This document shows, in pieces, positions 2,916 to 44,772 of a DNA stretch of 64,000 bases. Source of the stretch: Ktedonobacterales bacterium (GTDB lineage Bacteria > Chloroflexota > Ktedonobacteria > Ktedonobacterales > DATBGS01). The notes below the pieces were generated by a model that saw only the letters and a program-made list of their open reading frames with translations, did not search any database and had not been told where the DNA came from. How positions within the stretch are numbered: position 1 is the first letter of the stretch; the number at the start of each line of letters is the position of its first letter. The stretch lies in assembly GCA_036557285.1 (NCBI GenBank), contig DATBHW010000047.1:37001-101000 (forward strand), given 5' to 3'. Both the position numbers and the translations under genes were made by a program.

Positions 2916-5414
2916 TCAACGTCCAGATTTTGGCGTCCGCGCGGGCAGCAGAGGACGCCGAATAAGGCTCGGAATGCTGGGAACATCTACATCGTCGGGA
3001 AGATTCCTGGCCTCTTCGGCGGCGCGCGCGCTCTCTTCGCCCGCCTGAATACATTGCTGCGCCAGTTCCAGCAAGCCGTTGGCAATCTCTTCCGCGCGGG
3101 ATGCGGCCATGCCCAGCCGACGCGCCACGCGCTCGTGCGCCTGACCATCCAGCGGGCCTGACGATAGGTTCCCCGTTCCCGCCCTGGTTGCATCCGCCGA
3201 TGCAGGCGCGGCGGCAGGCATCCTGGGCGTCGTATCGCCCGCGCGCAGCCCCGCGAGCCGCTCCAGCATCTGCAAGGCGCTCAGCCCCGTCTTCTGCTCC
3301 GCCGCTGGCTGAGGCGCAGCGGGCGGCTGGGGCGCAGCCGAAGCGGGCGCCTGGCCCGCGCCCTGGATTTCTGGCAGAGCAGCCGTCTCCTGAATGGTGC
3401 GCGCCAGGCGCTGAGCAACCTCAGCCGCCGTCTGGATCGTCGCCGCCGCTGTGTGCAGCCGCTCAGCCTGCCTGGTAAACTGGCTGATCAGCAGATCGCT
3501 GTGCTGGCGCACCTGGGCTAGCTGGGCCGGATCGGCCCTGGGCGCGCTGCGCAGCCGTTCCTCCAGCCCCTCGCGCTCGGCCTGCAAACGCTGCTCGTGC
3601 ATCTGGCGCTCGGTGAGCAACCGCTGTTCGACGGTATGCAGCGCAGCCTCAGCCGCCGCCACACGCGCCTCAGCGGCTTGCGCCTGCTCCTGCAATCGCT
3701 GGCGTTCGCGCTTCCATTGTTCCTCAGTCGCCTGCGCCACCTGGCGCTCCGAGTGCAGGTGCCCTTCCAGCGTCTGCGTCATCTCCTGCGCGGCCTGGCG
3801 CTGCAACTGCGCCTCTTGCTCCAGTTCCTGGCGGGCAGCCTCCAACTGCTGCTGCGCCTGGTAATGTTCTTCCTCATATTGTTGGACCGTCATTTGCAAA
3901 CCGATCAGCCGCGTGCGCACCTGCACGACGCTCATCATCAGCCCATCCAACGGAGAGCCGCCGGGCGTGGGCAGTTCCGGCAAATCGTGCATTTCGCCCA
4001 GCGCCAATCGCCCCAGCGCATCCGTCAAAACGCGAATCAGGCGCGTCTCGCGGCCACGATCACGGTCATTGAGTTGACGGTCCATTCCCTCCAGTAAGCC
4101 GTTCAGGCGATCAGCCAGCGGCGTCAGTTCGCGGTCCAAAGCGCCTACCCGCGCTTGATAGTCGCCGTAGCCAAAGCGCGCCAGCGTCTCCATCACGTAG
4201 TTCAGACTCTCCTGGCGCGCGCGCGCCTGAATAAGCTGACTGGAGCGCAGCTGATCGACTCGCTCCTCTGCCAGCGCCACATCGCGCTCCAGCGCGCGGC
4301 GCTGCTCTGCCACCTGGCGCGACTCAAAGAGGCTCACCAGATGGCGCGCGCCAATCAGCGCCACCAGCAGGCTGGCGCACACCAGCGCCACCAGCATCTC
4401 TGTGGGGCTGCTGGCCCTGGTCAGCGCGTGCGCCAGAATAACGCCCACCACCACAACGGTCAGCGCAAAAGGCAAGGCCATCCAGATGCCAGAGCCTTCC
4501 TCATCGAGCGCAGACTCCTCTTCATCGGCTGACTTGCGGCCCCCGCCGCGCAGACGCAGCAGCGCGCCCAGGCCAACAGCCAGGTAGCCAGCGTTCCAGA
4601 CAGCCTGAAGGGGCGAGTTGGAAGGCGCGAGTTGACCAGGCGTCTGGACTATGCTGACAAAATCAGCGCCGACCAGCAGCAGCATCGCCAGCCCCAGGAT
4701 ACCCAGCGCGCTAGAGAGGGGGCTGTGTCCCGCGCCCACCGAGCGCAGGGCAAAGGTCAGCCCGCCCAGCAGGAGCAGGTCACTGACACAGATAGCCAGC
4801 GTCGTCAACTGCCCGGCGCTCAGCGGGCCATCCGTCACCAGAGCGAGCGGAACCAGCACAAAGTAGATTACCGCCGCCATCCCCGTGCCAACCACCAGCA
4901 GGCCATCGAAGAACCGCCCCAGCCGCGTCAGCGCCTTCGTACCCTGCGTGGGCGGGGGAAAGAGCAGAAATGCCAGGAAAAATCCGATGCTCTGGACGAT
5001 CAGCGCCAGGCTCGCCACCGAAGGATAGCTTCCCGCCAGGCTTACGGGGAGATTGGTATTGGATGAAGCCGGAACAAAGCGGGTTCCTTGCGCCACCAGC
5101 ACCCCCAGGCAGGCCAGGCCCAGCAGCACCCACGCGCCGCGCTCACGCCCCTGCAACGCCACGCTGACCAGTAAGCAGCTTCCCAGCGCAAAAAGCCCGC
5201 TAATCATGGGAACGCCTAGCTCCACCAGCCCTAAATGCGTGCCGCTGGAGAGCGCCAGGGCCAGCGCCAGAAAGCCTTCGGCCACCACAGCGAGCAGCAC
5301 GCCTCCGGCCAGGGGCAGCCGACTGGCCGGAGAGGATACAGCGGAGGGCCGCGCATCATCGGGCGGTTCCCCTGTCTCAGCGAACATATCTGATCTACCA
5401 GGAAAAATAGACAT
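2916..5414 (-). CDS. Large polytopic membrane protein with HAMP-like segment and long Q/E/A-rich coiled coil
   Basis: 832 aa. About 8-10 hydrophobic helices at the N-terminus, then GDYQARVGALDRELTPLADRLNGLLEGM (HAMP-like), then about 300 aa of heptad-like Q/E/R/A sequence. No catalytic motif recognised. Confidence 0.7.
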   Translation of the reverse strand: MSIFPGRSDMFAETGEPPDDARPSAVSSPASRLPLAGGVLLAVVAEGFLALALALSSGTHLGLVELGVPMISGLFALGSCLLVSVALQGRERGAWVLLGLACLGVLVAQGTRFVPASSNTNLPVSLAGSYPSVASLALIVQSIGFFLAFLLFPPPTQGTKALTRLGRFFDGLLVVGTGMAAVIYFVLVPLALVTDGPLSAGQLTTLAICVSDLLLLGGLTFALRSVGAGHSPLSSALGILGLAMLLLVGADFVSIVQTPGQLAPSNSPLQAVWNAGYLAVGLGALLRLRGGGRKSADEEESALDEEGSGIWMALPFALTVVVVGVILAHALTRASSPTEMLVALVCASLLVALIGARHLVSLFESRQVAEQRRALERDVALAEERVDQLRSSQLIQARARQESLNYVMETLARFGYGDYQARVGALDRELTPLADRLNGLLEGMDRQLNDRDRGRETRLIRVLTDALGRLALGEMHDLPELPTPGGSPLDGLMMSVVQVRTRLIGLQMTVQQYEEEHYQAQQQLEAARQELEQEAQLQRQAAQEMTQTLEGHLHSERQVAQATEEQWKRERQRLQEQAQAAEARVAAAEAALHTVEQRLLTERQMHEQRLQAEREGLEERLRSAPRADPAQLAQVRQHSDLLISQFTRQAERLHTAAATIQTAAEVAQRLARTIQETAALPEIQGAGQAPASAAPQPPAAPQPAAEQKTGLSALQMLERLAGLRAGDTTPRMPAAAPASADATRAGTGNLSSGPLDGQAHERVARRLGMAASRAEEIANGLLELAQQCIQAGEESARAAEEARNLPDDVDVPSIPSLIRRPLLPARTPKSGR

Positions 5415-5506: not shown

Positions 5507-5685
5507 CCTATCGGGGATTGCCACTTGTACCGCCGCCTTCCAGGCGGCTCAACGCTGCGCCAGGGCGAGCGTGCGCCCTCCAGGCCACCGTACCAGCAAG
5601 CCAGCGTCCAGCCGCCAGGATGGCGGCTGTCACTTGTAGCGCCGCCATCCTGGCGGCTAGTCGCTTACCGCCTATACCGCCAGCC
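5507..5685. repeat. Family-A repeat cluster
   Basis: CCTATCGGGG terminus, then ACTTGTACCGCCGCCTTCCAGGCGGC ... GCCGCCAGGATGGCGGC units. Ends about 9 bp from the stop of 5694..6215. Confidence 0.85.
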
Positions 5686-5693
5686 CCCTGCGC

Positions 5694-6215
5694 TCAGGCG
5701 GCCCGTTCCGTCTGCACAGCCTGACGCCAGACCCGCGCCAGCGCCCCCTTGAAGCGCCGCTGCGCCGCCTCCACTCCCTCTCGCTGCTCCAGCGCGCCAT
5801 ACCCCTGCCCGATGCGCACCAGGCTCACCGCCAGCGCCCAGTAGCGCACCTCCCACGCCAGCCAGCCGGGCCGCCGCATTGCCGCCTCTGGCGCTGCGGT
5901 CAACTGCACCAGCCGCCGCAGTTCCCCCACCAGCAGCCACCCCAGCCAGGCGTCACTGCGCCACGCCTCCTGCCGCTCGAAGGGCTGCCTCCGCGTCTCG
6001 GCGGCGAACACCTCCGCCACTTCCTGCTCGTCCTCGGCGCTCAGCGCCGCCAGCCCGCGCCCCTGGCGCGCCGCCAGCAATGCCGCCAGCCAGGGGCCAA
6101 GCGCCTCTGCCACCTGCCGCGCCAGGGGCAGCATGGCCCACACCGGCCCCACCGTCCGCCGCACTTCCTCGGGCCGAATGCCCGACACGCCCGACCCCAG
6201 CCAGGCGACATACAC
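5694..6215 (-). CDS. Hypothetical protein (W/R/A-rich, no family recognised)
   Basis: 173-aa ORF with GTG start and GGGAG about 9 nt upstream. The sequence is non-repetitive and protein-like, but GC-rich shadow ORFs overlap it, so coding status is uncertain. Confidence 0.45.
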   Translation of the reverse strand: MYVAWLGSGVSGIRPEEVRRTVGPVWAMLPLARQVAEALGPWLAALLAARQGRGLAALSAEDEQEVAEVFAAETRRQPFERQEAWRSDAWLGWLLVGELRRLVQLTAAPEAAMRRPGWLAWEVRYWALAVSLVRIGQGYGALEQREGVEAAQRRFKGALARVWRQAVQTERAA

Positions 6216-6686: not shown

Positions 6687-7052
6687 GGTTTCCACCACCT
6701 ATCGGGGCCGCGCCTGTACCGCCGCCGTCCCGGCGGCCCACCGCTGCGCCAGGGCGAGCGTGCGCCCTCCAGGCCACCGTCACTTGTAGCGCCGCCGTCC
6801 CGGCGGCCACCGCTGCGCCAGGGCGAACGTGCGCCCTCCAGGCCACCGTCACTTGTACCGCCGCCATCCTGGCGGCTCAACGCTGCGCCAGGGCGAACAT
6901 GCGCCCTCCAGGCCACCGTACCAGCAAGCCAGCGTCCAGCCGCCAGGATGGCGGCGCTACCAGTGAAGGCCGCGCGCGCTGCGGGCGGGGAGTCCCTGAA
7001 GAGGGACTTGGTGGCGGCGTGCCGCCTCCAGGCGCGGTTTTAACCGCCAGCC
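6687..7052. repeat. Family-A repeat cluster with three tandem 69-bp modules
   Basis: GGTTTCCACCACCTATCGGGG terminus. Module starts at 6781 and 6850 are exactly 69 bp apart. The right part carries the GGGGAGTCC...GGCGCGGTTTTAACCGCC submotif also seen at 44705-44772. Confidence 0.9.
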
Positions 7053-18898: not shown

Positions 18899-19177
18899 GA
18901 TTCCACCAACTATCGGAGGGCGCCACTGGTAGCGCCGCCATCTTGGCGGCTCGCCACTGGTAGCGCCGCCGTCCCGGCGGCTCGCCACTGGCTTGCCTGT
19001 ACATGGCGCTGGAGGGCAGACGCCACTTGTAGCGCCGCCATCCTGGCAGCTCAACGCTGGCCTGCTGGCACGTTGGCCTGAAAGGCGAGCGCTCGCCCTG
19101 GCGCAGCGGGGGCCGCCTGGAAGGCGGCGCTACAAGTACCATGCCTCGCTTGCCAACATCTCCTGTGTGGTGGAACC
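18899..19177. mobile_element. Family-A MITE-like element with flanking 9-bp direct repeats (8/9 identical)
   Basis: Termini GATTCCACCAACTATCGG... and ...GTGTGGTGGAACC. Flanks GGCGAACCT (18890-18898) and GGCGAAACT (19178-19186). Confidence 0.75.
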
Positions 19178-19264
19178 GGCGAAACTCTGCCCATTGCCCC
19201 ACGTAGACAATATTGGTATGATGGGTTCAGGTCGTAGCACAACAGGAAGAGGCAGGTCAAACCT

Positions 19265-22587: not shown

Positions 22588-23913
22588 ATGCTCCACCAGC
22601 CTCCCTGCATAGACTGGGCAGAAAAACTGACCCTCAGATACGAAGACCTGACGCCCGACGATCAAGTCGCCCTGGATGCCCATATCAAAAGCTGTTCCGT
22701 ATGCCAGGCAGCCCAGGCCGACTATCATTTTCTTGACGCGCGCCTGCGCGCCTTACCACCCCCTGGCATCAAGCCGTTTCCGCGCCTTTCCTTTCCCGCC
22801 TCTCTGAAACAGGAAGCGAACGAAGCGGGCAGCCGCGTATTGCCTGCGCGCCAATCTTCCAGCGCCCGACAACACGCCCTGCACACCGGCCCGTTTATCG
22901 CCTTCATCAAAAGAGCCGGAACAGGCGCTTTGATCGCCAGCCTCGTGCTGACCCTGCTGATCCTGTTCAGCGGGCGCGGCGTCTTCAACCCCGCCGACGC
23001 CTATCCGCTGGGAGCTACGCTCTTCAGCTATCAACGACATACCTTTTTTGTCACTGCCGTCGCCTGGTCGCCTGATGGCCGCTATCTCGCCTCCGGCAGT
23101 TGGGACCACAGCGTCCAGGTCTGGAACGCCCGGACCGGCGCGCTCGTCTTTTCCTACCAGCAGAATGACAACGTGGATGCCCTTGCCTGGTCGCCCGATA
23201 GCCGCTATCTCGCCTCTGGCAGTTGGGATTTCAGCATCGAGGTGTGGAACATCGCAGAGCAGCGTCTCACCCAGGTGTATCAGGGGCATAACGGCATCGT
23301 CTCCGCCCTGGCCTGGTCGCCTGATGGTCGCTATCTCGCCTCTGGTAGTTGGGATGACACCATGCAGGTCTGGGATGCCAGAACGGGCGCCACCCTTTTT
23401 ACCTATCAGTATAACGAGATCGTGGATACGGTGGCCTGGTCGCCCGATGGCCGCTATCTGGCTGTCGGCGGGAGAGATGATTACGTCCATATCTTGAGCG
23501 CCCAAAGACCCTGGCCCCAACTTTACGTCTACGCAGGCTATCCCTACCAATGCGCTGAATGCGTGGTAAATGCCGTGGCCTGGTCGCCAGACAGCCGCTA
23601 TATCGCCTCTGGAGATAGGGCTGGCATCGTGCAGGTCTGGGACACGACAACCGGACGGCCTGTTATCACCTATAAAGGCCATACCGCTGACGTGTACGCG
23701 TTGGCCTGGTCGCCTGATGGCCGCTATATCGCTTCCGGCAGTGTAGACCGCACAGTCCAGGTCTGGCAGGCCATGACGGGCCTCTTGCTCGTCACCCACA
23801 CCGGCCACAGCCAGACTGTCGCTGCCGTCGCCTGGTCGCCTGATGGCCGCTATATCGCTTCTGGCAGTTGGGACAACACCGTACAGGTATGGCAGGCAAC
23901 CTACGATGGGTGA
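22588..23913 (+). CDS. Anti-sigma factor (zf-HC2) fused to an extracytoplasmic WD40 beta-propeller
   Basis: 441 aa. HIKSCSVCQAAQADYHFL zinc-finger motif, TM ALIASLVLTLLILFSG, then about 7 repeats of AWSPDGRY(L/I)ASGSWD...VQVW. Starts 6 nt after the sigma gene stop. Confidence 0.85.
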   Translation: MLHQPPCIDWAEKLTLRYEDLTPDDQVALDAHIKSCSVCQAAQADYHFLDARLRALPPPGIKPFPRLSFPASLKQEANEAGSRVLPARQSSSARQHALHTGPFIAFIKRAGTGALIASLVLTLLILFSGRGVFNPADAYPLGATLFSYQRHTFFVTAVAWSPDGRYLASGSWDHSVQVWNARTGALVFSYQQNDNVDALAWSPDSRYLASGSWDFSIEVWNIAEQRLTQVYQGHNGIVSALAWSPDGRYLASGSWDDTMQVWDARTGATLFTYQYNEIVDTVAWSPDGRYLAVGGRDDYVHILSAQRPWPQLYVYAGYPYQCAECVVNAVAWSPDSRYIASGDRAGIVQVWDTTTGRPVITYKGHTADVYALAWSPDGRYIASGSVDRTVQVWQAMTGLLLVTHTGHSQTVAAVAWSPDGRYIASGSWDNTVQVWQATYDG

Positions 23914-23984
23914 GCATGAAGCAAGAAAGGAGGGGTGAGATAGCTGTTATTTTTGTAGGCAAACCCCATCTTCTGTGTGTAGCG

Positions 23985-24258
23985 TGAACACATTCAGGAA
24001 GGTAGCGCACTCCTGAACGAGTCGGCTGACTGGGCAGCCGGAACCAAAGCCGCGAGACCCTTAAAACGCTGGCTGAAAGAGCCGCAACAGGGGTTCGCCC
24101 CTGCGGGTGCGTTCACACCCGATGAATCCATCTTTGGGACTCTGATTCGGAACCGTCCGGTCCCTTGCCCGGCTAGGGCCACACACTCAGGTGTGCTGAG
24201 TGCGGTGTGTTGCAGGAGGCTGTCTGGTCGTAAGACCACTGAGGTCTATCAGGCAGGC
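23985..24258 (+). ncRNA. Candidate structured RNA of unknown class (independent sRNA or 5' leader)
   Basis: Non-coding gap with at least 9 local hairpins. Examples: TTCAGGA/TCCTGAA (23993-24017), CGGCTG/CAGCCG (24023-24040), CAGGGG-UUCG-CCCCUG (24088-24103) directly stacked on CGGGTG/CACCCG (24104-24121), and TGGTC-GUAA-GACCA (24225-24238). The tetraloop identities fit the + strand. Confidence 0.45.
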
Positions 24259-24305
24259 AAGTGCAAGAATCAACATGTATAATACATTTTGAAAGGCAGG
24301 GTATT

Positions 24306-25685
24306 ATGCCAATCTATGAGCGCCAGCAGCGCGAAGAGCTGGATCAGTTAGTGGAGGGCTACACCAACGGCAGCCTCAGCCGCCGCGCCTTCTTGCAGCG
24401 GGCTACCGCGCTGGGCCTCTCGCTGAGCTTTGCTGGCTCGATCCTGGCCGCCTGCGGCCCCAGCTCCAGTCCTTCCAATCCCACATCGGTGGATGTCCTC
24501 AACGTCTGGAGCGGCCCGGAGCAGGAGTCATTCAAGGCGGTGGTCAAGCCCTTTACCGATCAATCTGGCATTACCGTCAAACTTGAGTCCACGCGCGACC
24601 TGAACGCCACGCTGACTACCCGCATTCAGGGCCGCAACCCGCCCGACATTGCCATCCTGCCCAACCCCGGCAAGATGCAGCAGTTAGCGGCTCAGGGCCA
24701 TCTCATCTCCCTGGACAACTTCCTGGACATGGGCCAGATTCAGAGCCAGTATTCCCAAGGCTGGATTGACCTGGGCAGCTACAACAACAAGCTCTACGCC
24801 CTGTTCTACAAGGCCGCGAACAAAGGCACCGTCTGGTACAGCCCCAAGCAGTTCCAGGCCAACAATTATCAGATTCCCAAGACCTGGGACGAGATGATCG
24901 CTCTCTCCGATTCGATTGCCACCAGCGGTAAGTTCCCCTGGGCAATGGGCGTCTCCAGCGGCTCGGCCAGCGGCTGGCCCGCCACCGACTGGATCGCGGA
25001 GATTTATCTGAACACCAGCGGCCCGGACCTGTACGACCAGTGGGTCGCCCACAAGATTAGCTGGACCGACGACTCCATCAAGAACGCCTGGAAGATGTTC
25101 GGGCAGATCGCCGGCGGCAAGCACTACATCAACGGCGCGCCGCAGTCCATTCTGGCGACTGGCTTCCAGGAGGCCAGCTATAAGCCGTTCGATACGCCGC
25201 CCACCGCCTACATGTATTACCTGGGCGACTTCACCGAAACCTTCATCAAAGACCAGTTCAAGGACAAGGTAGTGGCCGGAACGGATTTCGACTTCTTCCC
25301 CTTCCCCACCATCAACCAGCAGTTTGCCAACTCGCTGACCGGCGGCGCCGATGTCGTCACGGCGCTGACCAATAACAGCGCCGTCAAACAACTGGTCCAG
25401 TACATGGCAACCCCCGCCGCCCAGGCCATCTGGGTCAAGCGCGGCGGCTTCACCGCCACCAACAAATCGGTGGACGCCAGTTCCTATCCCGATCAGGTAG
25501 CCGCGAAGTCGGCAAGCTCGCTGGCCTCGGCGGCCCACTTCCGCTTTGGCGCGGGCGATCTGATGCCATCTCAGGTACAGAACGCCTTCTGGGCGGGCGT
25601 TCTCAAGTTCATCGGCGACCAGAGCCAGCTTGACAGCGTCCTGGGCGAGATTGAAGGCATTGCGCAACAGGCGTATACTGGCTAG
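24306..25685 (+). CDS. ABC transporter substrate-binding lipoprotein (sugar/family-1 type)
   Basis: Twin-arginine-like signal SRRAFLQRATALGLSL followed by lipobox LAAC. Length and composition fit family-1 sugar-binding proteins. Start at the internal ATG with a GAAAGG RBS; the track ORF starts at 24261. Confidence 0.85.
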   Translation: MPIYERQQREELDQLVEGYTNGSLSRRAFLQRATALGLSLSFAGSILAACGPSSSPSNPTSVDVLNVWSGPEQESFKAVVKPFTDQSGITVKLESTRDLNATLTTRIQGRNPPDIAILPNPGKMQQLAAQGHLISLDNFLDMGQIQSQYSQGWIDLGSYNNKLYALFYKAANKGTVWYSPKQFQANNYQIPKTWDEMIALSDSIATSGKFPWAMGVSSGSASGWPATDWIAEIYLNTSGPDLYDQWVAHKISWTDDSIKNAWKMFGQIAGGKHYINGAPQSILATGFQEASYKPFDTPPTAYMYYLGDFTETFIKDQFKDKVVAGTDFDFFPFPTINQQFANSLTGGADVVTALTNNSAVKQLVQYMATPAAQAIWVKRGGFTATNKSVDASSYPDQVAAKSASSLASAAHFRFGAGDLMPSQVQNAFWAGVLKFIGDQSQLDSVLGEIEGIAQQAYTG

Positions 25686-29009: not shown

Positions 29010-29270
29010 CTGAATACCACTTGCAGCGCCGCCACTTGTAGCGCCGCCATCTTGGCGGCTCAACGCTGGCCTGCTGGTCCGTCGGCCTGGAGGGCGCACG
29101 CCACTTGTAGCGCCGCCATCTTGGCGGCTCAACGCTGGCCTGCTGGTCCGTCGGCCTGGAGGGCGAGCGTTCGCCCTGGCGAACTGCTGGCCGCCAGGGA
29201 CGGCGGCGGTACAGGCCCCGCAGCCCCCTGCCGCCAAGATGGCGGCGCTACAAGTGGTAGCCGCAACCAT
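29010..29270. repeat. Family-A repeat cluster with tandem 69-bp modules
   Basis: Module starts CCACTTGTAGCGCC at 29032 and 29101, exactly 69 bp apart. The cluster closes with GCCGCCAGGGACGGCGGCGGTACAGG and GCCGCCAAGATGGCGGCGCTACAAGTGG. Confidence 0.9.
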
Positions 29271-34972: not shown

Positions 34973-36697
34973 ATGCGCGTAACACCTGCCCGGCGATCTC
35001 TGCTCTTTGCGCTTGCCAGGCGCCTGAGCCTGGCTTTTGTGTTTGGGGCACTCATCAGCCTCCTCGGCGGGCTATGGCAAAGTTCTCTCAGCTATGCCGT
35101 CCTGGCGGATGCGCTGCTGCTGCGCTTCCTGCTGGACCGCCGAGAATGGGCGACCAAATCCTTTTGGGATCAAGCGCCCTGCCTCCTGTTTCTTCCTTTG
35201 TACGCCATTGTAGCCACATATAATCTGAATTTTGGCCTGAACAAAACGCTGGGGCTGACAGCCCCCTGCTTTAGCATCGCGCTGATCGCCGCGATGATCT
35301 TCTGGGCGAAAACGCCTTTGCCGCGCGCCTTTCCACTGTCGCCAGCCTATGGGCTGGCGGCTGCATCCGGCGCGCTCGTCATGTTCCAGATCGTCTTTCA
35401 CTTTCGCGCGCTAGACAGCGGCATCGTCCTCCTCGCACTCCTTCTGGCCGTCATAGGGAGCCTGCTTGGCGGACTCTTACACGTCTTCGCCGCATTTATT
35501 CGCACACTTCCCAGGCACTACATCTGGAAATATCACTTCTGGAAATATTACTCCTGGGTGAGAAGTGTAAGAGGCGTTGCGACTCCAGCCCTGGAGAAGC
35601 CGACCCGGGAGGAGCCACCACCGCCCGCCAGAAGCACCCTATCGCGGCGCACCGTCCTGGCGGGCCTGGTCGGTGCAGGTGGATTACTCGCCACCGGAGC
35701 CGGAGTAGCCTGGCTGACGCGCTACGTTGCTCCTCATTCTCTTGCGCTCGTCACCTACAAGGGGCATGAAGATGGCGTCTTCATACTTGCCTGGTCGCCC
35801 GATGGCTCACGCATCGCCACCGCAGGCGGGGACATAGATAAAACCATCCAAATCTGGGAAGCCACCTCTGGCAAAACACTGCTGACGTATCGCGGGCATG
35901 CCGACGGCCTTCTTATATCAAGCCTCGCCTGGTCGCCGGATGGCCGTCAGATCGCCTCAGCAGATTTTAAGGAAAACCTCCATATCTGGGACACCGCTAC
36001 TGGTGGTCATATGGTCACATATACCAAGCGCGGCTTCATTGCGCAGTGGTCGCCCGATGGCAGGCGCATCGCTTCGTCGGACTTCCACAGTATTCAGATT
36101 CGGGATGCCCTCACCGATACCCTGCTGCTTACCTATCAACCACAGCAGTTTGCGCCATGCGCTCTGGCCTGGTCCCCTGGTGGCACGCGCATTGTCGCTG
36201 GAAGTTCTGCTGGTGACGAGTTCCCGCCAGGCGTGCATGTTTTCAATGCTGTCACCGGCGAAACAATTGCTCTCTATAACAGCCATATCAGCAGCGTGAG
36301 AACAGCAATCTGGTCGCCCGATGGCAAGCGTATCGCCTCAGCCAGCATCGATCTTGTCATAGACACACCCCCGAACCAGATAGTCCAAAAAGACCCAACA
36401 GTCCACATCTGGGATGCCAGCACTGGCAAGCAGTTCTTCAGATACCGGGGACATACTGATACCGTCAATGGCGCGGCCTGGTCGCCTGATGGCAGGCGCA
36501 TCGCCTCAGCCAGCGACGATGAAACTGTGCAGGTCTGGGACGCTGATACCGGCAGCCATGTCTTCACCTATCACAACAGTTTTCTGCCGGATATTCATCC
36601 GTCACAGGTCGCCTGGTCGCCCGATGGGCGATTGATCGCTTCGGCCAGCTACGACTTTGGTGGGGACGCGCAAGTCTGGGTACCAGAAAAGACATGA
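34973..36697 (+). CDS. Polytopic membrane domain plus internal Tat-like motif plus WD40 beta-propeller protein
   Basis: WD40 repeats (AWSPDGSRIAT, AWSPDGRQIAS, WSPDGKRIASAS, AWSPDGRRIASASDD). Preceded by SRRTVLAGLVGAGGLLATGAG and about 6 hydrophobic helices. The start is uncertain; the track ORF begins at 34724. Confidence 0.75.
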   Translation: MRVTPARRSLLFALARRLSLAFVFGALISLLGGLWQSSLSYAVLADALLLRFLLDRREWATKSFWDQAPCLLFLPLYAIVATYNLNFGLNKTLGLTAPCFSIALIAAMIFWAKTPLPRAFPLSPAYGLAAASGALVMFQIVFHFRALDSGIVLLALLLAVIGSLLGGLLHVFAAFIRTLPRHYIWKYHFWKYYSWVRSVRGVATPALEKPTREEPPPPARSTLSRRTVLAGLVGAGGLLATGAGVAWLTRYVAPHSLALVTYKGHEDGVFILAWSPDGSRIATAGGDIDKTIQIWEATSGKTLLTYRGHADGLLISSLAWSPDGRQIASADFKENLHIWDTATGGHMVTYTKRGFIAQWSPDGRRIASSDFHSIQIRDALTDTLLLTYQPQQFAPCALAWSPGGTRIVAGSSAGDEFPPGVHVFNAVTGETIALYNSHISSVRTAIWSPDGKRIASASIDLVIDTPPNQIVQKDPTVHIWDASTGKQFFRYRGHTDTVNGAAWSPDGRRIASASDDETVQVWDADTGSHVFTYHNSFLPDIHPSQVAWSPDGRLIASASYDFGGDAQVWVPEKT

Positions 36698-43189: not shown

Positions 43190-43555
43190 GTGGATGAGGT
43201 TCTACCACCTGGCGGGGCGCCACCCGTACCGCCGCCATCCTGGCGGCTCACCGCTGGCCCGCCGCTCCGCTGGATTGGAGGGCGCACGCCACTGGTACCG
43301 CCGCCATCCTGGCGGCTCACCGCTGGCCCGCCACTACGCTGACCTGGAGGGCGCACGCCACTGGTAGCGCCGCCTTCCAGGCGGCTCACCGCTGGCCCGC
43401 CACTCCGCTGACCTGGAGGGCGCACGCCACTGGTAGCGCCGCCATCCTGGCGGCTCAACGTTGGCCCGCCACTACGCTGACCTGGAGGGCCACCGCTCGC
43501 CCTGGCGCAGCGTTGGCCGCCGGGGACGGCGGCGCTACACGCGGCTGACGCCCGC
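43190..43555. repeat. Family-A cluster with four tandem 69-bp modules
   Basis: CCACTGGTA(C/G)CGCCGCC starts at 43289, 43358 and 43427, each 69 bp apart, preceded by a more diverged unit. Closes with GCCGCCGGGGACGGCGGCGCTACACGC. Confidence 0.9.
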
Positions 43556-43599
43556 TTCCCCCAAAAAGTCCTATTGCCGCAAAAATACGCGCCCGATGC

Positions 43600-43628
43600 T
43601 TGACATAGGCGCATCAAGCAGGTATACT
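43600..43628 (+). promoter_or_regulatory. Near-consensus sigma-70 promoter (TTGACA-17 nt-TATACT)
   Basis: TTGACA at 43600-43605 and TATACT at 43623-43628. The first RBS-supported start codon downstream is at 43910. Confidence 0.6.
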
Positions 43629-44351: not shown

Positions 44352-44772
44352 GCCTGCCCTCCAGCGCCGCCTTCCAGGCAGCCACTGGTAGCGCCGCCTT
44401 CCAGGCGGCCACCGCTGCGCCAGGGCGAGCGGTCGCCCACCAGGCCACCGTACCAACAGGCCAACGTTGAGCCGCCAGGATGGCGGCGCTACAAGTGGCG
44501 TGCGCCCTCCAGACCACCTTACCGGCGGCCCACCCGTACCGCCGCCGTCTCGGCGGCTCAACGTTGGCCCGCCACTCCGATGGATCGGAGGGCGACCGCT
44601 CGCCCTGGCGCAGCGGTGGCCGCCTGGAAGGCGGCGCTACAAGTGACGTGTGCCCTTCAGGTCAGCGTACCGGCAGGCCAGCGTTGCGCCGCCCAGGCGC
44701 GCCAGGGGTGGGGAGCCTGTGCAGACAGGCTTGGCGGCGCAGCCTCCAGGCGCGGTTTTAACCGCCAGCCCC
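44352..44772. repeat. Family-A repeat cluster (multiple modules in both orientations)
   Basis: Begins 2 bp after the 43910..44350 stop and ends at the stop of 44773..45348. Contains the GGGGAGCCTGTGCAGACAGG...GGCGCGGTTTTAACCGCC terminal submotif. Confidence 0.9.

Follow-up and report, generated by a model that had tools for sequence, protein, structure and literature searches.

Results

A lineage-specific insertion between a Shine-Dalgarno sequence and a start codon

The DNA analysed here is a 64,000-nt stretch from a Ktedonobacterales bacterium (contig DATBHW010000047.1; referred to as the window), in which a gene for a WD40 anti-sigma protein is followed by the gene for an alpha-glucoside-type ATP-binding cassette (ABC) solute-binding protein of a sugar ABC operon. 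We focused on the gap between these two genes and on the element at 23933-24299 that fills most of it (Table 1). The gap extends over 392 nt (23914-24305), from the WD40 stop codon at 23911-23913 to the ATG at 24306, and its sole open reading frame (ORF), of 81 aa on the - strand, has no Pfam match; this is in line with a preliminary description, made from the letters of the sequence alone, according to which the gap measures ~390 bp and holds no credible ORF. Six metagenome contigs carry the identical 392 nt with zero differences, and blastn and nhmmer detected no further copies of the gap segment within the window.

The comparison covered 75 loci that encode proteins related to the solute-binding protein, to which four further close relatives were added. 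In all six closest relatives (L007, L008, L202, L203, L204 and L206; solute-binding protein identity 76-81%), the gene order sigma factor, WD40 anti-sigma and solute-binding protein is kept, and none of the six has a match to the element. Instead, they have a spacer of ~100 nt that is conserved among themselves and dissimilar to the spacer in the window, and the start of the gene reads AGGAG/GGTAT(C/T)ATG in each of them (the slash marks the position of the insertion). By contrast, AGGAG (23928-23932) in the window is followed by 367 nt and then by GGTATT-ATG. Because the six relatives have AGGAG/GGTAT(C/T)ATG uninterrupted, we conclude that 23933-24299 is a lineage-specific insertion of 367 nt between a Shine-Dalgarno (SD) sequence and a start codon.

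The possibility that the ~100-nt spacer of L007 and L008 is a decayed copy of the element was discarded, as nhmmer with the --max option gave no match. A native spacer of ~90 nt, which is conserved in the six relatives and presumably holds the promoter of the ABC operon, has no counterpart in the window. AGGAGGG occurs twice in the relatives, directly past the WD40 stop codon and ahead of the ATG (e.g. L007, 3880-4000; compare 23914-23932 in the window), and the native spacer may have been lost by deletion between two such copies.

The insertion is homologous to the right ends of TnpB transposons

Among the loci of the 75 relatives, the sole nhmmer match outside the strain itself is at 2135-2275 of L040, on the strand opposite to the binding-protein gene. 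Here, positions 244-390 of the intergenic region match the 3' end of a tnpB gene together with the region downstream of it: the L040 ORF has 403 codons with the Pfam domains OrfB_IS605 and Cas12f1-like_TNB, i.e. it codes for TnpB, and window 24158-24193 translates as RSLARLGPHTQV compared with RFLARLGPHTSL at the TnpB C terminus. When metagenome contigs were scanned for exact copies of the 20-mer TTGCCCGGCTAGGGCCACAC (24165-24184), at least 120 loci were returned; the family counts given here and below are samples from the metagenome loci listed and not a census. Among the matches listed, ~55 loci have the motif within the last ~12 codons of an ORF of at least 370 codons, the homologous region has the orientation of tnpB in every full-length element, and 48 of these TnpB proteins share the N terminus MLLCKKIKLEVS. 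Conservation ends ~95-150 nt past the motif, at GAAAGGCAG, which has GGCAG as its terminus. The family TnpB passes the NCBIfam model guided_TnpB (189 bits; cut-off 100), and its closest solved structure is that of ISDra2 TnpB (E 3e-18).

In many full-length copies, the C terminus of a conserved ORF precedes tnpB. L110 is a complete IS607-type element with a TnpA composed of a MerR-HTH and a resolvase domain (557-1180) and the order AGGAG, left end, tnpA, tnpB and right end, followed by ATTGCT-ATG of a peptidase M20 gene. In other full-length copies, the place of tnpA is taken by a promoter, TTGACA-17-TAcAAT, with a short reading frame upstream of tnpB; in this tnpA-less subgroup (L091, L113, L117, L121, L128, L159, L195 and L200), the left-end promoter is strong, and the short reading frame after it (..ESMLETLDRLVQQEYERLQ..) is conserved and continues into tnpB.

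Family elements carry AAACGTGTKC-type repeats in tandem at the left end, and the right end has two (C)AACACGTTT repeats; the usual terminal inverted repeats are absent, and there is no target duplication at AGGAG/.../GGTATT. IS607 elements have ends of this kind, i.e. short direct subterminal repeats without terminal inverted repeats or target duplication (PMC6188088). The window copy keeps a left-end remnant of only ~41 nt. Similarly, a serine-recombinase TnpA is present in relatives such as L110, while the window copy contains no ORFs, and the element in the window is at most a non-autonomous IS607 derivative. An identity as a PATE (palindrome-associated transposable element) of a Y1 element was rejected, since the partner TnpA is of the resolvase type where it is present.

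The preliminary description had proposed an unclassified structured RNA and had considered that it might be the leader of the ABC operon. The location upstream of the operon and the rich predicted structure are what would be expected of a riboswitch or another cis-regulatory leader; however, the element is absent at six orthologous loci with the same gene order, homologous copies precede unrelated genes, e.g. those for peptidase M20 and a putative dehydrogenase, and there is no match in Rfam. The six element-free loci and the copies before unrelated genes refute a sugar riboswitch or leader, which we regard as wholly improbable; for the same reasons, in-line probing with sugars would be pointless. 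The absence of a known RNA family had been anticipated: window-wide, no Rfam family was found at gathering thresholds, 23850-24400 gave only two chance matches at E<=10 (SNORD113 and FTX), and 10 family loci gave nothing at E<=1.

Covariation supports a structured RNA on the + strand

The minimum free energy of 23985-24258 has a z-score of -1.94 on the + strand, with 10 of 200 shuffled sequences folding equally well, and of -3.2 on the - strand. Folding energy alone is barely above chance; the evidence for structure rests on comparative data.

The 3' module begins 12 nt ahead of the motif and ends with the right end; a MAFFT alignment of it comprised 25 copies of the long variant, the window among them. 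The structure predicted by RNAalifold comprises P7 (GCCC-GGCUA-GGGC), P8 and a long P9, with CCUU paired to AAGG as the closing pairing. In this alignment, which was not fitted to a structure, 93.4% of cells are paired compared with 36-46% when the partners are slid; moreover, 111 cells are changed on both sides compared with 37 +/- 5 in shuffled alignments, none of 500 of which reaches the observed value. The window forms 29 of the 36 consensus pairs.

The 5' two-thirds of the intergenic region (positions ~20-245), used as a single-sequence query, align only to copies without a long ORF among the matches listed. We identified at least 14 distinct solo copies (the window, L082, L083, L102, L136, L144, L148, L149, L151, L152, L168, L184, L199 and L201), which share a 5' module of ~190-220 nt. 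Helices H1-H6 of this module recur in single-sequence folds, and the sequences of the stems vary between copies. A covariance model of the 5' module gives 105-165 bits for the 14 solos and ~20-31 bits for full-length elements; the latter score corresponds to the anchor motif and an H6-like hairpin (model positions about 150-195). A decayed tnpB C terminus as the source of the 5' domain was also tried and rejected, as tblastn with the 48 TnpB proteins matches the last ~12 codons only. Across the 14 solos, 79.8% of cells are paired compared with 31-43% when slid, a fraction that is inflated because the alignment used for the pair counts was fitted to the model; 19 pairs are changed on both sides (reached in 0 of 500 shuffles). 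The window forms 34 of the 41 consensus pairs.

The assignments of H1/H2 and H5/H6 in the window and a few other copies were set by eye against the alignments. H1 is, in addition, similar to two inverted copies of the end-repeat motif. At H4, other copies read GCC(A)GC-GUAAAU-GCGGC; at H5, the loop is conserved as CGUUCAU, while the stem covaries (CCGGAG/CUCCGG, CCAGAG/CUCUGG and others). H6 has the inner stem CGGA-ACCG-UCCG (24148-24159). Judged from these alignments, the predicted RNA would consist of two parts, i.e. a core (H6 and P7-P10; 24136-24299) that is common to the right ends of tnpB elements and a domain (H1-H5; 23974-24121) that is found only in solos.

G-U cells exceed A-C cells in the 3' module (81 versus 19) as well as in the 5' module (30 versus 18). 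Therefore, the + strand, which is the sense strand of tnpB, is favoured, and the covariation is on the strand expected for an omega RNA. The better fold of the - strand would argue for an RNA transcribed in the opposite direction; however, the G-U excess in the covarying helices, the co-orientation of the homologous region with tnpB in full-length elements and the promoters of complete solos, which face the + direction, all speak against it, and we consider such an RNA very unlikely. Thus, the + strand reading of the preliminary description is favoured by both the G-U/A-C counts and the tnpB orientation.

All helices named in the preliminary description are found where they had been placed (Table 1), and most of them coincide with the covarying helices H1-H6 and P8 of the family; the hairpin-rich character of the segment is thus real in comparative terms, although its folding energy is scarcely unusual. 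The two tetraloop hairpins fared less well. The UUCG hairpin is present but is a window-specific insertion inside the loop of family helix H4, and the GNRA hairpin UGGUC-GUAA-GACCA lacks support in the family, where the consensus pairs AGACC (24233-24237) with GGUCU (24243-24247), a stem with which this hairpin competes.

Complete solo copies are mini-elements with their own promoter

Six of the solos (L083, L102, L144, L151, L152 and L168) are complete mini-elements with the layout AGGAG, left-end repeats, promoter, RNA and right end. In complete solos, the left end is ~130-150 nt long and contains tandem AAACGTGTKC repeats and a promoter; the promoter is located ~25 nt before H1, points in the + direction and, in L144, reads TTGACA-17-TATGAT (11 of 12 positions). 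The L144 contig carries a full-length tnpB element (1146-2366; host ATG at 2421) and a solo (3411-3810) 1 kb apart and, therefore, solos and effectors share genomes. This solo begins directly past the stop codon of the host gene that starts at 2421.

A U-run (UUUU or UUUUU) follows H5 in most solos and is terminator-like by scan (L144, 3661-3686); the window is without it. It is possible that the 5' domain terminates as a short RNA of its own or works as an attenuator. Among the 14 solos, the long P9 occurs in the window alone, and its other occurrences are in full-length elements, L110 and L157 for example, which hints that the window copy may be a mosaic that arose by recombination between a solo and a full-length element.

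The junctions define a candidate target-adjacent motif and guide

In the family, 16 of 16 elements that could be evaluated have NGGAG, mostly AGGAG, next to the left end. For IS607 TnpB, 5'-AGGAG was measured as the target-adjacent motif (TAM) of 18 of 22 strains, and single mutations in the TAM abolish cleavage (PMC11061315). At the right end, conservation halts after TTTGAAAGGCAG, at 24299 in the window, and the flanks beyond it are unrelated between loci. Among the matches listed, the start codon of an ORF of at least 80 codons lies 0-11 nt past the right end at 62 of 88 distinct loci, compared with 10.8% of 20,000 positions drawn at random from these loci. Because the TAM AGGAG adjoins the left end and start codons are close to the right end, we conclude that the family inserts directly after the SD sequence of the host.

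In TnpB systems, the guide corresponds to the DNA just outside the right end. In the window, this predicted 20-nt guide is GGTATTATGCCAATCTATGA, and it matches a natural empty site: the sequence after AGGAG in L203 is identical to window 24300-24319 at 20 of 20 positions, i.e. L203 reads AGGAG+GGTATTATGCCAATCTATGA, while the other five relatives have 2-5 mismatches. The right-end GAAAGGCAG is SD-like and differs from the TAM at 2 of 5 positions; to judge from this difference, the occupied site would be protected from cleavage by the TAM-mismatched GAAAGGCAG. The AG shared by both termini may be the crossover dinucleotide.

The right end very probably serves as a surrogate Shine-Dalgarno sequence

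The solute-binding protein gene is now translated from a surrogate SD sequence, GAAAGG/CAGGG, at 24291-24301, and it is close to certain that the right end was exapted as a ribosome-binding site, as a by-product. The TATAAT box had been read as a possible separate promoter of the ABC operon. This promoter could not be upheld, as the box lies within the right-end repeats of the transposon and has no usable -35 box; moreover, no promoter-like site and no terminator-like site were found in 23600-24600, and no terminator is predicted between the upstream sigma/anti-sigma operon and the ABC operon.

It is conceivable, if rather doubtful, that the element persists as an exapted expression module, its right end providing the ribosome-binding site and possibly a -10 box for the ABC operon. 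The native spacer of the six relatives is absent from the window, the TATAAT is specific to the window (other family copies read TTTCAAC or TTTGAAC at this position) and the start codon is 6 nt past the right end, a spacing comparable to that at the 62 of 88 family loci described above; however, an acceptable -35 box is lacking, the promoter scan came back empty and, with no terminator predicted upstream, read-through suffices. A role of TATAAT as a window-specific -10 element is speculation. An exapted module of this kind is compatible with an element that retains its guide-RNA gene as well as with an inert one (see Discussion).

Surrounding sequence

According to the preliminary description, the gap contains no family-A/B repeat. 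The absence of repeats holds within the window; when genomes are compared, however, the segment proves to be a member of a dispersed family of elements. Elsewhere in the window, we observed more than 30 copies of a GC-rich intergenic repeat resembling repetitive extragenic palindromes (REP), with the core ACTTGTAGCGCCGCC[AT]TC..GGCGGC and often arranged as tandem 69-nt arrays and inverted pairs (e.g. 5523-5694, 6700-6990, 18901-19200, 29010-29260, 43198-43620 and 44357-44700); these are probably the repeats that had been called families A and B. The WD40 anti-sigma gene (23024-23907) and a second WD40 gene (35786-36655) share 123-126-nt repeats that are 73-94% identical at the nucleotide level, which suggests that they may have been homogenised recently.

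Table 1. Positions of the element, its predicted RNA helices and adjoining genes in the window; the last column gives what the preliminary description had placed at the same position
Feature	Positions	Strand	Remarks	Preliminary description
WD40 anti-sigma gene	22588-23913			
AGGAG, host SD sequence and predicted TAM	23928-23932	+	abuts left end of element	
Truncated left-end remnant, ~41 nt	23933-23973	+	comparison with L184, L186, L144, L151	
H1, UGUGU-(9 nt)-ACACA	23974-23992	+	5 of 9 pairs changed on both sides	
H2, CAGGA-AGGUAGCGCAC-UCCUG	23995-24015	+	family GUAGC loop kept, stem sequence varies	
H3, CGGCUG-ACUGGG-CAGCCG	24023-24040	+	92% of cells paired, 3 pairs changed on both sides	
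Central variable region of solo-specific 5' domain	24041-24081	+	alignments	
H4, CCGC...GCGG	24082-24106	+	private UUCG-capped stem in loop (24088-24103)	
UUCG hairpin	24088-24103	+		CAGGGG-UUCG-CCCCUG
H5, CGGGUG-CGUUCA-CACCCG	24104-24121	+	92% paired, 3 pairs changed on both sides	CGGGUG-CGUUCA-CACCCG
H6, variable-sequence hairpin adjoining core	24136-24164	+	5 pairs changed on both sides	GGGAC...GUCCC
Invariant motif TTGCCCGGCTAGGGCCACAC, including P7 (24167-24179)	24165-24184	+	last ~12 TnpB codons (..LARLGPH..) in full-length elements	
P8, CACAC-ACUCAG-GUGUG-CUGAGU-GCG-GUGUG	24180-24209	+	99.5% paired, 4 pairs changed on both sides	CACAC...GUGUG
P9, long variant, UUGCA...UGCAA and inner stems	24210-24267	+	consensus tip AGACC-ACUGA-GGUCU (24233-24247)	
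GNRA hairpin	24225-24238	+		UGGUC-GUAA-GACCA
Right end: AAUCAA, subterminal repeats CAACATGTAT / AATACATTTT (TATAAT inside), TTTGAAAGGCAG	24268-24299	+	alignment	
TATAAT box	24278-24283	+		TATAAT
Predicted 20-nt guide GGTATTATGCCAATCTATGA	24300-24319	+	spacer, ATG and first codons of solute-binding protein gene	
Alpha-glucoside-type ABC solute-binding protein gene	24306-25685	+	context gene	

Discussion

Here, we report that the gap upstream of the ABC operon is occupied by an insertion that is probably an immobilised solo derivative of an IS607-type TnpB transposon family of Ktedonobacteria that has kept its guide-RNA gene. In place of the orphan RNA proposed earlier, 23933-24299 appears as the guide-RNA (omega RNA or right-end element RNA, reRNA) module of this family, inserted without tnpB; the search for homologues that had been suggested led to the right ends of TnpB elements and to solo copies. 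Comparison with complete elements indicates that tnpA, tnpB, the promoter and the greater part of the left end would have been lost from the copy in the window. Homology, covariation, the presence/absence polymorphism, the junctions and the match of TAM and guide support this reading directly; from these, we infer transcription, binding by TnpB, activity in trans in this genome and any role of H1-H5.

We suggest the following mechanism. The + strand would be transcribed only by read-through from the sigma/anti-sigma operon, and the RNA would extend ~20 nt beyond 24299 and so include the guide. A family TnpB encoded elsewhere in the genome would bind the RNA scaffold and cut element-free alleles that bear AGGAG+GGTATTATGCCAATCTATGA, and the insertion would be retained or homed in this way. 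The occupied site, in which GGCAG takes the place of AGGAG, would escape cleavage.

Several observations weigh against a guide-RNA gene that still functions as part of this family. A search of the window, translated in six frames, and of a further ~9 kb to the left of it with a hidden Markov model of the family TnpB gave no match. The left end is ~41 nt long and no promoter-like site was detected; because of this, the window copy is probably immobile and dependent on read-through. The window is also the most divergent of the solos (105.6 bits compared with 117-165 bits in the others), and H4 as well as the stretch after H5 contain private insertions. Finally, the 5' domain was not detected in full-length elements by nhmmer profile, tblastn or covariance model, and its paired fraction has to be read with the fitted alignment in mind.

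Several of these observations would fit an inert fossil, i.e. an insertion of the same IS607-type TnpB origin that has no functional guide RNA now and persists since its right end supplies the ribosome-binding site and deletion is not favoured. The truncated left end without a promoter, the lack of a tnpB within ~73 kb, the lowest model score among the solos, the private insertions and the disruption of 7 of the 36 consensus pairs in the 3' module, mainly in P9, are as expected for such a remnant. On the other hand, H1-H6, P7 and P8 are all retained, several of them through compensatory changes, every invariant position of the core is intact and the predicted guide and a natural empty site agree at 20 of 20 positions. 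We regard an inert fossil as a serious, if less likely, alternative as far as function is concerned.

Returning to the view that the guide-RNA gene has been kept, the solos as a group could have one of two origins. They may be deletion relics of full-length elements or, as we tentatively propose, they may form a distinct family of guide-only mini-transposons that homes into the gap between SD sequence and start codon. A guide-only element would then consist of AGGAG, a left end with TnpA-binding repeats and a sigma-70 promoter, H1-H5, an omega RNA core and the right end. Its 5' domain, with the terminator-like H5 and U-run, might stabilise, process or gate the guide RNA or replace the scaffold encoded by tnpB, and the host SD sequence would be replaced by the TAM-mismatched mimic GAAAGGCAG so that translation in the host continues.

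The family closely resembles the TnpB omega RNAs/reRNAs of IS200/IS605 and IS607 elements (OMEGA, which stands for obligate mobile element-guided activity), including that of ISDra2. In the homologues, the scaffold overlaps the 3' end of tnpB and reaches the right end, the location expected of an omega RNA; moreover, the guide is the DNA just outside the right end and the TAM is beside the left end. The family protein passes guided_TnpB and has ISDra2 TnpB as its nearest solved structure. The differences are that the family is absent from Rfam, that the window copy is without tnpB and that the solos add a 5' domain of ~150 nt (H1-H5) that goes undetected in full-length elements.

ISFba1-type systems share with the family a serine-recombinase TnpA as partner, a TnpB of ~400 aa, an AGGAG TAM and a guide of ~20 nt (PMC11061315). 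ISFba1's IS607 TnpB has an reRNA that is derived from RAGATH-18 and lies wholly outside the ORF (Cell Res 2024, PMC11061315); by contrast, the scaffold of the family overlaps the last 12 codons of tnpB, and the family protein is nearer in sequence to ISDra2 TnpB than to 8IAZ. The RAGATH-18 covariance model gave no match at E<=10 in 23850-24400 of the window nor at E<=1 in 10 family loci and, therefore, we rejected an identity as RAGATH-18 reRNA.

Standalone omega RNAs exist and act in trans, according to the summary of Altae-Tran et al. 2021 in PMC10691335. As far as that summary goes, they resemble the solos in being mobilised guide loci without effector or transposase in genomes that also hold effectors, as exemplified by L144. 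They differ from the window copy, which is without most of the left end and the promoter and for which a co-resident TnpB is only presumed. The element also resembles the PATE and miniature inverted-repeat transposable elements (MITE) of IS200/IS605 in being short, without ORFs and with transposon ends retained; unlike in PATE, the partner transposase is a serine recombinase and not a Y1 TnpA, and the ends have direct subterminal repeats and not Y1-type hairpins.

Thus, the kind of element is already known, as standalone omega RNAs and the AGGAG TAM have been published. New here are the RNA family, the solo-specific 5' domain and the clear natural example of an insertion between SD sequence and ATG whose right end mimics an SD sequence; our literature search found no discussion of the TAM as a ribosome-binding site or of this insertion pattern. 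For the locus, a false lead is removed, as the segment is neither a sugar riboswitch nor an orphan non-coding RNA. The repertoire of TnpB guide RNAs gains a family that is absent from Rfam and comes from the poorly studied Ktedonobacteria, and the solo 5' domain may interest groups that engineer omega RNAs. With an occupied site, an empty site, a TAM, a guide and a TAM-mismatched right end, the locus provides a natural illustration, at the level of sequence, of TnpB homing, and AGGAG+GGTATTATGCCAATCTATGA is a directly testable target. Finally, the pattern seen across the family, with AGGAG on the left as both TAM and SD sequence and, 4-11 nt ahead of the start codons of host genes, an SD mimic on the right, illustrates how RNA-guided transposons are able to occupy 5' untranslated regions at little cost to the host.

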